From positions 114,566 to 178,565 of the forward strand of contig JBHLOY010000007.1 of NCBI GenBank assembly GCA_048939995.1: 64,000 bases of DNA. Reading direction: 5' to 3'. This document shows positions 8,853-49,720 of the stretch, piece by piece. This stretch comes from Promethearchaeota archaeon (GTDB lineage: Archaea; Asgardarchaeota; Lokiarchaeia; Sigyniarchaeales; SOKP01). A model generated the notes under the pieces. That model did no database searches, was not told the DNA's origin, and saw nothing but the letters and a program-made list of their open reading frames with translations. The position numbers and the translations under genes are program-made. Positions within the stretch are counted from its first letter, which is position 1. Every line of letters starts with the position of its first letter.

Positions 8853-9017
8853 TTATTTTACTAAATCTCTCTTTTTCAATCGGAGGTCTTTTGCTCTGCA
8901 TCTTCGGCACTTTTTTGCCCTGATTGGGTTGAGAGCTCCACAATGTCTGCATACGGATTTTTCAAGCAGATGGAATCGGGCGATTTTTCTTTTGTAAGGG
9001 TCGTCGATGGGCGCCAT
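8853..9017 (-). CDS. rpl40e: 50S ribosomal protein L40e (not in ORF track)
   Basis: Manual translation MAPIDDPYKRKIARFHLLEKSVCRHCGALNPIRAKKCRRCRAKDLRLKKRDLVK*, with the CxxC...NP...CRRC...LR signature. Confidence 0.95.
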   Translation of the reverse strand: MAPIDDPYKRKIARFHLLEKSVCRHCGALNPIRAKKCRRCRAKDLRLKKRDLVK

Positions 9018-9219: not shown

Positions 9220-9414
9220 ATGCCAAAGGAAATAAATTCCAGTGATCAATTTATAGAATTAGCTGAGTTTGCAATTCATTGTAGAGTGAAGAGAATTAAG
9301 GATGTTGTGAAATTAAAGCTTAGGACTAAGAAATATCTTTATACTTATAAAACAGATCCTAATACAGCAGATAGACTTTTGGCCAACCTAAAGTGCGACA
9401 TTATCGAACTTTAA
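9220..9414 (+). CDS. rpl38e: ribosomal protein L38e
   Basis: MPKEI...VKLKLRTKKYLYT signature. Confidence 0.92.
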   Translation: MPKEINSSDQFIELAEFAIHCRVKRIKDVVKLKLRTKKYLYTYKTDPNTADRLLANLKCDIIEL

Positions 9415-14715: not shown

Positions 14716-15633
14716 ATGGATGAAGATTGGAAAAAATCCTATATTAAAGCTGGTAAGGCTGTAATTGCTGCAAAGAAATTAGCTCAAAAGATTGTAAAAC
14801 CTGGGTTGTTGTTTTTGGACTTAGCAACTAAATGTGAAGATGAAATTTTAAACCAGGGATGTAAATTAGCCTTTCCTATAAATATTTCCTTAAATGAAAT
14901 CGCAGCTCATTATAGTCCTACCATTGACGATGAAAAGATTATACCTGCTAAAGGATTGTTGAAGATTGATTTAGGGGCTCATTATGAAGGTTATATTGCG
15001 GATTCTGCTTTTACCATTAATATTAATAATGATAAAGTTCTTAAAAATTACATTGATGCTGCTGTTGAAAGCCTTGAAGCAGCAATTGCTAAATTTAAAC
15101 CAGGAACTAAGCTATATGAATTAGGAGAAGTCATCGCTGATAAGATCATAAATCATGGATTAAGACCAATTGTTAATCTTGGGGGTCATGAATTAAAGAG
15201 ATATAATTTGCATGCTGGCCCATTTATACCAAATTTTCGAGACACTAGTCATAATCAAATATTAAAAATAGGTGATTCTTACGCGTGCGAGCCATTTGCG
15301 ACATCTGGAGTGGGCAAAGTTATGAATGGAAATGAATCTTATATATATAGATTTGTTAGAAAAGCCAAAAAAGATATGTCTTATAAAGATTTAGATATTA
15401 TGAAAAAGATTGAGAATATTACGCAACGTCTTCCTTTTTCTCCTCGATTGTTAGAAAAAAATGGAATTGAAAAACAAGAAATTAATAACATCATTAATAA
15501 ATTCTTACGAAAAAAAATTCTTGATAATTATCCCATATTGATAGAAAGATCAGGTGAACCTGTAGCCCAACAAGAACATACAATTATTATAGATATGGAT
15601 GGAAATCCAATTGTCATCACACGAGAAGAGTAA
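14716..15633 (+). CDS. map: methionine aminopeptidase type II
   Basis: AFP..IS.NEIAAHY, KIDLG, IADSA, NLGGH, EPF, EHT. Confidence 0.95.
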   Translation: MDEDWKKSYIKAGKAVIAAKKLAQKIVKPGLLFLDLATKCEDEILNQGCKLAFPINISLNEIAAHYSPTIDDEKIIPAKGLLKIDLGAHYEGYIADSAFTININNDKVLKNYIDAAVESLEAAIAKFKPGTKLYELGEVIADKIINHGLRPIVNLGGHELKRYNLHAGPFIPNFRDTSHNQILKIGDSYACEPFATSGVGKVMNGNESYIYRFVRKAKKDMSYKDLDIMKKIENITQRLPFSPRLLEKNGIEKQEINNIINKFLRKKILDNYPILIERSGEPVAQQEHTIIIDMDGNPIVITREE

Positions 15634-16474
15634 AGAAAAAGAGTTAATTCCTGTTATTTTATGTGCAGGAGAGGGAACTAGGTATGGAAAACTTACTCAA
15701 AATTTACCTAAACCTCTAATCCAGTTGAAATTATTAAACAATGAGTCGATACTCTCTTATTTAATTAAAAATCTTTTATCTTTACATCTCAAAAAAGTTG
15801 TTATAATTACTGGGTATTTAAATGAAAAAATTGAATTTTCTGTGAATTTAATGAAAAAGGACTCAAATAACAAAGGTAAATTAGTTCTGATTCATTCTGG
15901 AAAACAATACAAGAAAGGCCCTCTCTTTTCCTTACTTTCCATAGTTCAAAATAAAGAAATATATGCAAAAAATAATATATTTATTATTTTTCCCGGAGAT
16001 ACTATTTTCGAAATACAATTACTGAAAGAAGTCTTCGATTTTATTTATAAAAGGATAACAGTTTTTACCAAACCTTGTATTTTTTTCCAAGAAATTTATC
16101 ATTTAAATGACTATTTAAAAATTGATAAATCTAATCCTAAACTTGTATCTATAATAGAATCTGAAGATTCTAAGAGTGGAAGAATAGTTAAAGAAATTAA
16201 AAAGATTGATTTGAATTTAATTTCAAAAGGGTCTCTCATAAATTTGGCTGTCCCTATTCTAGTTTTTAATTTTAAATTTATAAAGATTTTGCATAAACTT
16301 TCTGAGAGTAATCCCGTAGGAGAAATAAGAGAAACTTTGAATATTTACTTAAAGCAAAATCAAAGGATTATTTCTAAAAAATTAAATTCGAAATATAAGT
16401 TTTATGATATTGATACGTCTGAAGACTTAAATTATTTTAATCAGATCAAAAAAAAAGAAAAAGGTGGACAATAG
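15599..16474 (+). CDS. NTP-transferase (sugar-phosphate nucleotidyltransferase family)
   Basis: ILCAGEGTR...PKPL, DIDT. Confidence 0.85.
   Translation: MEIQLSSHEKSKEKELIPVILCAGEGTRYGKLTQNLPKPLIQLKLLNNESILSYLIKNLLSLHLKKVVIITGYLNEKIEFSVNLMKKDSNNKGKLVLIHSGKQYKKGPLFSLLSIVQNKEIYAKNNIFIIFPGDTIFEIQLLKEVFDFIYKRITVFTKPCIFFQEIYHLNDYLKIDKSNPKLVSIIESEDSKSGRIVKEIKKIDLNLISKGSLINLAVPILVFNFKFIKILHKLSESNPVGEIRETLNIYLKQNQRIISKKLNSKYKFYDIDTSEDLNYFNQIKKKEKGGQ
16448..16462 (-). terminator. oligo-U terminator of candidate ncRNA
   Basis: Minus strand TTTTTCTTTTTTTTT immediately after the 3' arm of the terminal helix. Confidence 0.65.
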
Positions 16475-16910
16475 TAGCTCCGATAACCTCCGAAGAAATG
16501 TTTCAAAGGAATCAAGAATTCCTATGAATTCTCTCCTGGATCAAAGCTTCTATTGGGAAAACAGAACTTTTTAAAAGAGCATTTTTGTTTTGTTGTCTCG
16601 AGTATCAAAAAAACCACTCAACACCACAAGAACTCATTTAATAATTGCTCCTCAGATTAATTTATTCTCTCAACGTAAAAACTCATAATTGCTCCAGAGT
16701 ATTAATTATTACAATTTACGAGTGTTTGTATAAAAACCTTAAGGAATGAATGTAATTCAAATATTAAACAACTGGATTCAATGTCTTCATTAAATCCTTT
16801 TGTACCAAAAAAAAAATCATTGTTGTTGTTTTACTTACTAGGTGGTCACAACTTTTTCAGTAGAGGGACCGTATTAATTGTATCTAAATCCAATGCAATA
16901 CTATTGTCCA
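16463..16910 (-). ncRNA. candidate ~450-nt structured non-coding RNA of unknown class
   Basis: No long ORF. 12-bp terminal helix (16899-16910 with 16465-16476), several hairpins whose imperfect pairs are G-U only on the minus strand, a cUUCGg loop, an upstream BRE/TATA and a downstream U-tract. Confidence 0.7.
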
Positions 16911-16932
16911 ATAAATTAAATGGTGAATTGAC

Positions 16933-16946
16933 TATTTAAATCTTTT
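16933..16946 (-). promoter_or_regulatory. BRE + TATA box of candidate ncRNA
   Basis: Minus strand AAAAGA-TTTAAATA ending 22 nt before the 5' arm of the terminal helix, which is canonical archaeal spacing. Confidence 0.65.
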
Positions 16947-17022
16947 TATTAACATAAATTATGAACTATACATATGCAATTAAGAAAATTTGAAATATCA
17001 AAATTGATTTTATAAATAAATC

Positions 17023-17418
17023 ATGTCTGATAGTGGAGAAATCCCAATTAAAATTGATCTATTTGGAATTGGTACTTTAGAGGCACATATTAATAGATAT
17101 TTTGCTCCTTTATCTGCTGATGCGATTTTAGATAAATTACCTCTTAATCTAAGAGGAAGATTTAGTTTTGGATCAAAAAAACATTGGATACTTCCGGGGG
17201 TAGAAATATTTAAAGGAACGAATCCAAAATCTAAAAATGAAGTAGACAAGGGTGATATAATTTATAATCCAAAAGCAGATGAATTAATAATGGTCATAGA
17301 AACGTCTTTAATGCCGAATAAAGTAAATTTGATCGGAAAAATATTCAGCAATCTTGATCTTCTATTAAAAGCTAGGAATGGATTAAACACGAAAATCTAT
17401 AAGGCTTCTAGAAAATAA
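17023..17418 (+). CDS. cyclophilin-like fold protein (TM1367/DUF369-like)
   Basis: AP.SA.AI...LP, GDIIYNP, VNLIGKI. Confidence 0.7.
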   Translation: MSDSGEIPIKIDLFGIGTLEAHINRYFAPLSADAILDKLPLNLRGRFSFGSKKHWILPGVEIFKGTNPKSKNEVDKGDIIYNPKADELIMVIETSLMPNKVNLIGKIFSNLDLLLKARNGLNTKIYKASRK

Positions 17419-18429: not shown

Positions 18430-18747
18430 CTATAGATTTAATTTTGAAAGAGTTATTTCAATGTTGGAAATTATATCTTTTTTTTGCTGAGGTTTTTGTC
18501 TATTTTTATATCTATGTTGTTTATGATTATAATACGGGCGACTTCCTAATGATATATTGGCAATTTCTATATTTGGGTACATTCTATGTTTCAAAATTTC
18601 AGCCACTTCAACTGCGGTTGAGATTTCATTCCCCTCTCCTTTTATCATTAAAGATTTGGTTCCTCCTGAAAAAGCAAAAATAGCATTTTTAATTGTTTTA
18701 TCTTTATCAGAGCGATTTTTTATTATTAGTGTAGTATCATTAGCCAT
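18430..18747 (-). CDS. Alba-family nucleic acid-binding protein (divergent)
   Basis: IKGEGNEISTAVEVAEI...I.LGS...ISNIEITL. Confidence 0.85.
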   Translation of the reverse strand: MANDTTLIIKNRSDKDKTIKNAIFAFSGGTKSLMIKGEGNEISTAVEVAEILKHRMYPNIEIANISLGSRPYYNHKQHRYKNRQKPQQKKDIISNIEITLSKLNL

Positions 18748-18869: not shown

Positions 18870-20063
18870 TTAGTTTAGTTTAAATTCTGAGCGCTTATTT
18901 AAATCATCCAAAATGGTTTGATATTCAAAACTTCTGGATTCAAAATGTTCAATTATTTTTCGCTCATCTGTATCAAGATACTCAAAATATGGAGAGATTA
19001 TTTCTATCCGTTTAGTGAATTCTTCAATAATTTTGTTATACCAGTCATTTGGTTTTGATAATAAGGCTTGAATTTTTTTCTTGAATTTTTTTTTAAGCTT
19101 AGAATTATCATTTTTAATTTCAAGTAAAGAAGTCTCATATTCTTTAATCTGATTTTCTATTTTCTCTCTGAATTTTGGAATTCTATAGCTTTTCTTAAAA
19201 AATTCTGGATCCCATTCATATAAATATCTTTCATCTTCTTCAGCCTCCTCTTCATTGTTAGTGACTTTAATATCAGTTTTGGGTACTAAAATTAAACCAT
19301 AATTTCTTTGTAGTTGAGCTAAATACTTTTTACGTAATATCTCATCGATATAAGTTAATTCTTTTAATACTTTCTCTATCTTTTCACCTAAGTCAATAAT
19401 TATAGACTCTACTTTCTTAACCATCTCTTTTTCATTATATTCATAGTTCAACACTGTAAAATCATACGTGGAAAACATACCTTGATCTGGATTTAAAATT
19501 CTTAATGCGGCCACACCGGGAAAAAAGTCGGGTGATTTTAATTCACAGTGATCGAAAATTAAACCTACAGCAAAAGGATTTGGAATTTGATAGCCCAGTT
19601 GGGTTAAACAATCTATTGGACTAAAAAAAAATTTAAAGCCGGGATGGGAATGCCACCAACCGATTATAAAATCGTTTTTTTTGTCTTGTATAGATTTTTC
19701 AAATATTGATTCATCTATCTGCGCCATATCAACATATTGTTTATTCTCATATTTAACCCCTGCTCGATCACCAACTACCATCGGAATGGCATCCTTAATG
19801 ATAACTTGTTTATTATCTTCAATAGATCCGATTAAAATTCCATAAACTTCACGCCAATTTTTTGTTGATAAGTTATTATTAGCATACCTTATTGCATAAC
19901 CGACCATTCTTCGATATGCATTTAACTTTAATAATACAGGAGTTTTAGCCGGATTAATTCCGTATCTTTCTATTAATTTAGCAGTCGCGGACAATTCTGT
20001 CAGATTTTTAGAATTTATTAAGTCATTGTCTTCTTTATCGGGTTTTCCTTGTTTGAGGTTCAT
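18870..20063 (-). CDS. MPN/JAMM (Rpn11/CSN5-like) metalloprotease with long helical C-terminus
   Basis: EVYGIL...GWWHSHPG....SPID..TQ complete JAMM motif. Confidence 0.88.
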   Translation of the reverse strand: MNLKQGKPDKEDNDLINSKNLTELSATAKLIERYGINPAKTPVLLKLNAYRRMVGYAIRYANNNLSTKNWREVYGILIGSIEDNKQVIIKDAIPMVVGDRAGVKYENKQYVDMAQIDESIFEKSIQDKKNDFIIGWWHSHPGFKFFFSPIDCLTQLGYQIPNPFAVGLIFDHCELKSPDFFPGVAALRILNPDQGMFSTYDFTVLNYEYNEKEMVKKVESIIIDLGEKIEKVLKELTYIDEILRKKYLAQLQRNYGLILVPKTDIKVTNNEEEAEEDERYLYEWDPEFFKKSYRIPKFREKIENQIKEYETSLLEIKNDNSKLKKKFKKKIQALLSKPNDWYNKIIEEFTKRIEIISPYFEYLDTDERKIIEHFESRSFEYQTILDDLNKRSEFKLN

Positions 20064-49150: not shown

Positions 49151-49720
49151 TTATATCACAATGTAAAAGAACGTAGAAGTAGGTTGTTTACTCATTTTAT
49201 TTATCAGTTCATAATCTAACTTCAACCTTTCAAACCCATCTAGTGCATACTTATAAGAAGTAAGAATTGAACCTTGTTTAGCAGTTGATAACAGATGTGG
49301 AAGATATTTGTGCATAGGAGGGAAAGAATAAATATAAATAAAGTCAAAATTTCCTAGGTTAATATCATATAAATCTCCATGAATGAATTTAATTTTTTTT
49401 AATACCTTTTTTTGGTGAGTTTTTCCCTTTCTTAAGGATTTAAGATAGTTTTTTGCTTCCTTAACTAAATCTAAGTTAACTTCAATTCCTACAGACTTTA
49501 TATCATAATTTGTAGCAGAGTGAATAACTACTTTTCCATTTCCGGCGCCTAAATCTATTAACTTCTGTTTAGAGTGCTTAATTAATCCATACTTTAGTTT
49601 AAGAGTTTTAAAAATGCTATTAATATGATCCTGATTTGTTTCTAAGAAGGGTAAATCTAGTTGAGAACTAACATTAACAAATGTTGATTTCTTCATTAAT
49701 ATTTCAAAGAAATTACCCAT
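49151..49720 (-). CDS. class I SAM methyltransferase
   Basis: PF..T, DLGAGNG, GIE. Confidence 0.85.
   Translation of the reverse strand: MGNFFEILMKKSTFVNVSSQLDLPFLETNQDHINSIFKTLKLKYGLIKHSKQKLIDLGAGNGKVVIHSATNYDIKSVGIEVNLDLVKEAKNYLKSLRKGKTHQKKVLKKIKFIHGDLYDINLGNFDFIYIYSFPPMHKYLPHLLSTAKQGSILTSYKYALDGFERLKLDYELINKMSKQPTSTFFYIVI

Follow-up and report, generated by a model that had tools for sequence, protein, structure and literature searches.

Does the largest clean gap in a stretch of an Asgard contig encode an RNA, and if so, of what kind? The stretch analysed here (64,000 nucleotides (nt) of contig JBHLOY010000007.1 from a Promethearchaeota archaeon, referred to as the window) contains a largest clean gap at 16475-17022, two longer gaps between long open reading frames (ORFs) being occupied by short ORFs. 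The original prediction, which had also singled out this gap as the largest without genes, took it for a stand-alone large RNA gene of no recognised class in an Asgard archaeon, and comparative evidence supports that view. Judged by comparison of sequences, the element is very probably a single-copy, vertically inherited gene that has its own TATA promoter and U-tract terminator and specifies a noncoding RNA (ncRNA) of 360-790 nt with paired ends. It thus appears to be a real, undescribed and family-wide RNA gene of an Asgard lineage: it has no Rfam family, no description of it was found in the literature searched, and the main text of two 2026 ncRNA surveys by genome language models mentions neither Loki- nor Asgard archaea.

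The elements of the gene itself are as follows:
16941-16947, minus strand: purine-rich B recognition element (BRE), upstream of the TATA box
16933-16940, minus strand: TATA box, 22 nt before the first arm
16448-16909, minus strand: ncRNA gene, ~445 nt plus U-tail
16899-16910, minus strand: 5′ arm of the terminal helix P1, 12 bp
16465-16476, minus strand: 3′ arm of P1, 12 bp, overlapping the end of a nucleotidyltransferase gene on the plus strand
16448-16462, minus strand: U-tract terminator, U5-C-U9

A terminal helix between promoter and terminator

The two arms, the BRE and TATA box and the terminal U-tract were all found where they had been predicted, and the helix formed by the arms covaries. 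Among 112 members with 15 distinct arm pairs, 148 of 150 cells were canonical, against 132 on average and at most 141 when partners were shuffled 10,000 times; these shuffles take no account of relatedness, but the changes do fall in separate genera. Specifically, pair 4 runs through the series C-G, U-G and U-A, and double changes occur at pairs 1, 2, 4, 6, 9 and 10 in different genera. Read from the opposite strand, these U-G steps would become A-C mismatches, and they therefore speak for an RNA helix on the minus strand. The minus strand of the window member also folds better relative to shuffles than the plus strand (z -3.44 versus -2.09). The helix is unbroken, with no bulged C.

The distance from the TATA box to the first G was 20-24 nt in members of every genus examined, and the start of the RNA was placed at G16909 from this spacing. 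At the other end, a U-tract follows the 3′ arm in all complete members; the aCPSF1 of Lokiarchaeota works in U-tract termination (PMC8716108). In a set of 28 diverse members, the near-invariant columns were both P1 arms, GCAUUGG(U), a U-tract at about +97 and a UC shortly before the 3′ arm. No reading frame was conserved on either strand among members, and a small-protein mRNA was rejected on that ground. When 586 long intergenic regions of the genome were screened for a TATA box, a terminal helix of at least 10 bp and a U-tract, the RNA locus came out together with a few low-complexity or weak matches.

Occurrence within one family

A lack of homologues or of covariation in relatives had been named as grounds for abandoning the proposal; relatives proved to hold conserved homologues with a covarying terminal helix. 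With a sequence model built on the promoter plus the initial 45 nt, we detected the 5′ end in 119 of 135 family genomes, including 34 of the 36 high-quality ones, and in 13/13 genera. Most family members scored 30-59 bits and the weakest 24-29, and the best matches outside the family reached 20-22 bits; those of them that were inspected lay inside ORFs or were without a 3′ arm. Two copies were present in only two assemblies and otherwise nearly always one per genome, flanked by map/NTP-transferase on one side and a cyclophilin-like gene on the other, and neither BLAST nor nhmmer found a second copy in the element's own genome. Because a single copy is kept in all 13 genera, the gene is probably under strong selection. 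In one genome, a second copy (L134:5456-6200, G116 contig C87) has the promoter, 5′ arm and motif and no matching 3′ arm; it adjoins a cyclophilin-like gene, its downstream gene is not the usual one, and it might be either a decayed copy or bin contamination.

Both RNA ends were found by BLAST in most genomes of the genus, where 29/29 complete loci share the same four neighbours, and ~30 loci of other genera are syntenic as well. In eleven other genera, the DNA upstream of the cyclophilin-like gene indeed carries a TATA box, a G-starting arm 20-24 nt further on, and a complementary arm with a U-tract, the distance from arm to arm being 360-630 nt (790 nt in one member). A pattern scan across GTDB yielded 63 matches, 59 of them archaeal, all beside the same genes, and four bacterial and without synteny. 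Four archaeal matches are labelled Odin-, Hermod- or Hodarchaeota; since the cyclophilin-like and map proteins encoded there share 67-88% identity with those of the window, we infer that these titles are loose labels.

In the other Asgard families searched, the element was not detected at this sensitivity; the regions beside map and the nucleotidyltransferase gene in families f2, f3, f4 and f7 contained no such element, and a relaxed motif run over 400 genomes of the phylum gave no consistent signal outside the family. Loose promoter-plus-motif matches in other Lokiarchaeia families were rejected as scattered and without a terminal helix. Two tempting matches in distant Asgard genomes fell within ORFs and lacked a 3′ arm. 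Three pattern matches on viral contigs likewise came without a 3′ arm (0/3). In two closed genomes of 4.32 Mb and 6.04 Mb, which we take to be those of the cultured Promethearchaeum syntrophicum and Ca. Lokiarchaeum ossiferum, no element was found beside map or elsewhere at this model's sensitivity, so that cultured Lokiarchaeia, once proposed as a source of RNA-seq data, appear to be a poor choice.

The two flanking genes, given for context, are:
15599-16474, plus strand: convergent nucleotidyltransferase (NTP-transferase; PF00483)
17023-17418, plus strand: divergent cyclophilin-like protein (weak PF04126 match)

The neighbourhood also includes aspS, map and an Alba protein. Two minus-strand genes of the window lie at a distance of 1.5-3 kb: one for an Alba-family protein (18430-18747), the other for a JAB/MPN protease that has a long helical tail (18870-20063). 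Further away, short ORFs at 8853-9017 (minus) and 9220-9414 (plus), which fell below the cut-off of 100 amino acids, resemble by eye the ribosomal proteins L40e and L38e.

Possible alternative pairings of the ends and a loose interior

Inside the terminal helix, the following features were recognised:
16890-16896, minus strand: near-invariant (G)CAUUGG motif, after a variable linker of 2-11 nt from P1; 5′ strand of the putative helix P2
16807-16816, minus strand: U10 tract inside the RNA, at +95; a candidate for either an Sm-like protein site or an internal terminator
16774-16797, minus strand: strongest hairpin of the original prediction
16590-16636, minus strand: internal hairpin module (UCUUGU with an ACGAGA-type strand) whose sequence is conserved in genera g1, g18 and g22
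16540-16554, minus strand: near-copy of the 5′ end (AAUAG..GCUUUGAU) that forms the 5′ strand of the 3′ hairpin P3 and could displace P1/P2
16476-16484, minus strand: 3′ strand common to P3 (local partner) and P2 (partner CAUUGG), with a hexamer at 16478-16483

Of ~113 members, only two depart from the UGG(U/A) of the motif, with CAUAGG and CAUUGU. In a single case seen (L068:675-1065, G089), the promoter, terminal helix and 3′ domain are kept and the CAUUGG region is missing, through either a natural deletion or an assembly error. The hexamer sits 3-4 nt inside the 3′ arm in 105 of 114 members, and the pairing proposed for P2 joins CAUUGG to UC(G/A)(G/A)(A/U)G in a wobble-rich helix. Over 22 distinct combinations, C-G was found in 19, U-G or U-A in 16 and 20, G-C or G-U in 21, and G-U in 20; hexamer variants differ mainly in having G or A opposite the two U, and in one member a G-U pair is replaced by U-G.

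The same hexamer strand pairs more fully with the internal near-copy of the 5′ end than with CAUUGG, and in g1, g18 and g22 the near-copy segment can also invade P1. The P2 and P3 forms are mutually exclusive and lie 3 kcal/mol apart in the window member, and the RNA ends may alternate between a closed rod and a state that leaves CAUUGG free.

The interior between these ends is loose. Four internal hairpins had been listed at the outset, and all four are present in the window, but three of them are not conserved: the strongest occurs in 9 of 115 members, confined to the window's own sub-clade, the one with a UUCG loop in three, and another in this genome only. A long-range UUGGAUU/GAUCCAG helix suggested alongside them is not conserved among members either. 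As far as comparison of the members goes, the conserved structure is instead the terminal rod together with (in three genera) the 3′ hairpin and one internal hairpin; in g1, g18 and g22, P3 and the internal hairpin had 91% of cells paired. With the terminal helix removed, the interior of the window member folded with a z of -1.4. Because the interior is weakly folded and most of the hairpins first listed are strain-specific, the RNA is not ornate in the manner of OLE or ROOL, and its build, as read from the alignments, is a small fixed core at the ends with a flexible middle.

The internal U-tract recurs in this middle: a run of at least 6 U at +60 to +135 was present in 69 of 82 members, compared with 20% of background intergenic windows, and A-runs in 5 of 82. 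It is preceded by A in 61 of 78 members and followed by G in only 19 of 78, the Sm consensus being RA(U)nG. A repeated motif of the CsrB kind was looked for and not found, no K-turn, H/ACA, C/D or bulge-helix-bulge features were seen by eye, and no complement of the motif was present in the partial 16S sequence searched, the element's own assembly being without 16S and 23S.

In genus g20, the longer interior (L045:479-1100 and L046:487-1117) holds three diverged copies of a module of ~45 nt, which suggests that length changes by internal duplication. Elsewhere on the contig, at G000:C37 ~78500-78630, there is a GC-rich element of 125 nt with paired ends and a GGAUUUUUG segment like the U-tract context of many g1 members.

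A proposed particle, its rivals and known RNAs

The explanation that we favour, and to which as a whole we give slightly less than an even chance, is that the RNA would be the scaffold of a ribonucleoprotein (RNP) particle, with a protein-read terminal rod, Sm-like loading, a tether-like interior and switchable ends. The joined ends would form a rod of P1, an asymmetric internal loop and the wobble-rich P2. Because the sequences of P1 and CAUUGG are conserved beyond the needs of pairing, a specific protein would most likely recognise them. One of the Sm-like proteins, of which the genome has four LSM-domain genes, would be likely to load at the U-tract near +95, and the long, length-variable and loosely folded interior would act as a tether. 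Formation of P3 would free CAUUGG, and the binding site may so switch between closed and open. A bolder version, in which this is a new archaeal RNP whose scaffold RNA is bound by an Sm-like ring, whose rod flips between closed and open to expose CAUUGG, and whose fixed ends and flexible middle are an independent Asgard invention of a plan familiar from the Y, telomerase and small nuclear RNAs of eukaryotes, seems to us improbable, if worth stating.

Several points weigh against the scaffold, besides the relatedness of the members used in the P1 shuffles. P2 is weak per sequence, with 5.0 of 6 pairs versus 4.3 for the best of 8 random registers, and is for this reason an inferred helix only; conservation of the hexamer strand could serve P3 alone. 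The interior helices in g1, g18 and g22 show no covariation above shuffles, and with the arms removed interior folding was near random in 24 members (mean z -0.77 sense, -0.52 antisense). The base after the U-tract is usually A, unlike the G of a canonical Sm site, and the tract could stop transcription instead. Finally, no protein partner was identified, and TROVE and RRM domains were not found.

The last reading of the U-tract leads to the alternative that survives best, though it is still unlikely: the internal tract might end most transcripts at ~100 nt, or a long form might be processed to a shorter working RNA. The tract's conserved position at +60 to +135 would fit such a gene, as would termination at U-tracts by aCPSF1, the Lokiarchaeota orthologue included (PMC8716108), and this lineage cuts and rejoins other RNAs, as its permuted 5S rRNA illustrates. 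However, covariation links the 5′ arm to the 3′ arm 250-700 nt further on, which argues that the full-length molecule is needed, and no bulge-helix-bulge was seen at the ends by eye.

Scarcely less probable is an RNA-pairing switch, in which the UGG(U/A) of the open state would pair with the NCCA end of a tRNA or another RNA, making the element a sensor or decoy of tRNA ends. UGG-NCCA pairing is known for the T-box antiterminator bulge and the L15 loop of RNase P. The near-invariance of UGG(U/A), the mutual exclusion and closeness in energy of P2 and P3, and the neighbouring aspS, map and Alba protein all agree with this switch, but a match of 3-4 nt is too short for a comparative test and two members break the motif. 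There is also no T-box stem I or other Rfam match, and no gene follows on the same strand, the downstream genes lying on the other one. As a separate observation on the tRNAs of this genome, many of their genes have introns at non-canonical positions (D-arm, T-loop), and ARAGORN finds only 20 tRNAs.

Less probable again would be a known class in strongly diverged or lineage-specific guise, such as a second RNase P/MRP-like, snRNA-like or telomerase-like RNA, for which the single copy, near-universal presence in the family, paired ends, fixed core, variable interior and U-tract could be cited. Rfam searches gave chance matches only, both for the window (E up to 10) and for 13 divergent loci (E up to 1). 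RNase P and SRP RNA had been singled out at the start as the identities that would overturn the proposal. There was no match to RF00373 or RF01857 at the locus, and both genes lie elsewhere in the genome, the former on contig C7 (126.5 bits), the latter on contig C13 (70.9 bits, E 1e-15) with its helix 8 motif. The invariant columns lack the RNase P/MRP conserved regions, including those that form P4, a reverse transcriptase (PF00078) was found neither in the genome nor among the neighbours, and the element was not found outside one family. An expanded 5S rRNA was rejected as well, the element lacking the loop C and loop E consensus and a 5S gene being present elsewhere on the contig (G000:C37 ~49395-49600, minus). 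This gene is circularly permuted, and for that reason scores below the RF00001 cut-off: its 3′ half precedes its 5′ half inside an outer stem (L173; also L174-L177), and two relatives carry an extra insert.

A local regulator or insulator is of about the same low probability, or slightly lower. An antisense RNA or 3′ hairpin would then control the convergent aspS-map-NTP-transferase mRNA or the divergent gene, in keeping with the gene order fixed across the family and with the 3′ end of the RNA overlapping, on the opposite strand, the last codons and stop of the NTP-transferase. Yet this overlap is only ~25 nt, and the wobble pairs of P3 would be A-C mismatches if read on the mRNA (plus) strand. 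Moreover, the RNA is kept in genus g19, in which the NTP-transferase gene is absent beside it, and in g23, in which the cyclophilin-like gene is separated from it; this retention where either neighbour is lost or moved speaks for the scaffold.

Only a small chance is left to a DNA element whose inverted repeats would bind a protein, be it a replication origin, a partition site or a recombination site. Inverted repeats do flank an AT-rich core in single copy, the motif reads CCAATG on the other strand, and the cumulative GC skew of the contig has a low point 10-25 kb away, but this skew tracks gene direction, G-U-type asymmetry is tolerated by the arms in only one orientation, and the TATA spacing and U-tract are polar. 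No Orc1/Cdc6 gene lies beside the element, Cdc6_C matches (three genes) occurring only on contigs C19, C7 and C5. A MITE or other mobile relic, to which the terminal inverted repeats, the size and the absence of an ORF might point and which had been raised at the outset, is refuted by copy number and synteny, with one copy per genome at the same fixed site in 13 genera and no true viral copy.

The scaffold reading can also be set beside known RNAs with paired ends. Y RNAs enclose a variable loop between conserved stems that arise from pairing of their two ends (PMC4726728), and the present RNA resembles Y RNAs and nematode stem-bulge RNAs in its paired ends, lower and upper stems, highly variable loop, short conserved motif and oligo-U tail. 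The features by which Y RNA and Yrl are recognised (paired-end stems, variable loop, oligo-U tail) were thus all found, the upper stem P2 being putative. Unlike those RNAs, however, it is four to seven times longer and has no bulged-C Ro60 site; the GUG-CAC upper stem and UUAUC loop motif are not among the family-wide invariants, and Ro60 (TROVE, PF05731) was not found in the 98% complete genome. The resemblance is one of analogy in build only, not of membership.

Sm-class RNAs such as snRNAs and yeast telomerase RNA have a positionally conserved U-tract, a small fixed core and a flexible interior, all of which this RNA shares; here, in contrast, the tract lies near the 5′ end and is usually without a closing G, and neither a reverse transcriptase nor evident splice-site pairing accompanies it. 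Like tmRNA, the RNA has a similar size, paired ends and a GG dinucleotide ~19-20 nt from the start, but it lacks a T-arm, conserved CCA, G3-U70 and a conserved tag frame; the bases after the 3′ arm vary, and ARAGORN found no tmRNA. Archaeal RNase P and SRP RNAs are likewise single-copy stand-alone genes with a terminal helix, but with conserved cores that are absent here. OLE, the raiA motif, ROOL and GOLLD offer a parallel in being several hundred nt long, with their own promoter and terminator, an orphan function and a restricted lineage. Those bacterial RNAs are densely covarying and ornate, whereas in this archaeal one, which has no Rfam match to them and no dense covarying interior, only the ends are fixed and length varies twofold around a loose middle.

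To our knowledge, archaea have hardly any known large stand-alone RNAs beyond those of the ribosome, RNase P and SRP, and none had been described for Asgard archaea in the literature searched. Because their interior changes fast, such RNAs would escape Rfam and BLAST. Since the RNA was undetected outside the family, it is more likely a family invention than the ancestor of a eukaryotic RNA. It nevertheless may bear on the origin of eukaryotic RNP scaffolds, and offers a definite RNA with which to explore the targets of the Sm-like and other RNA-binding proteins of Asgard archaea.
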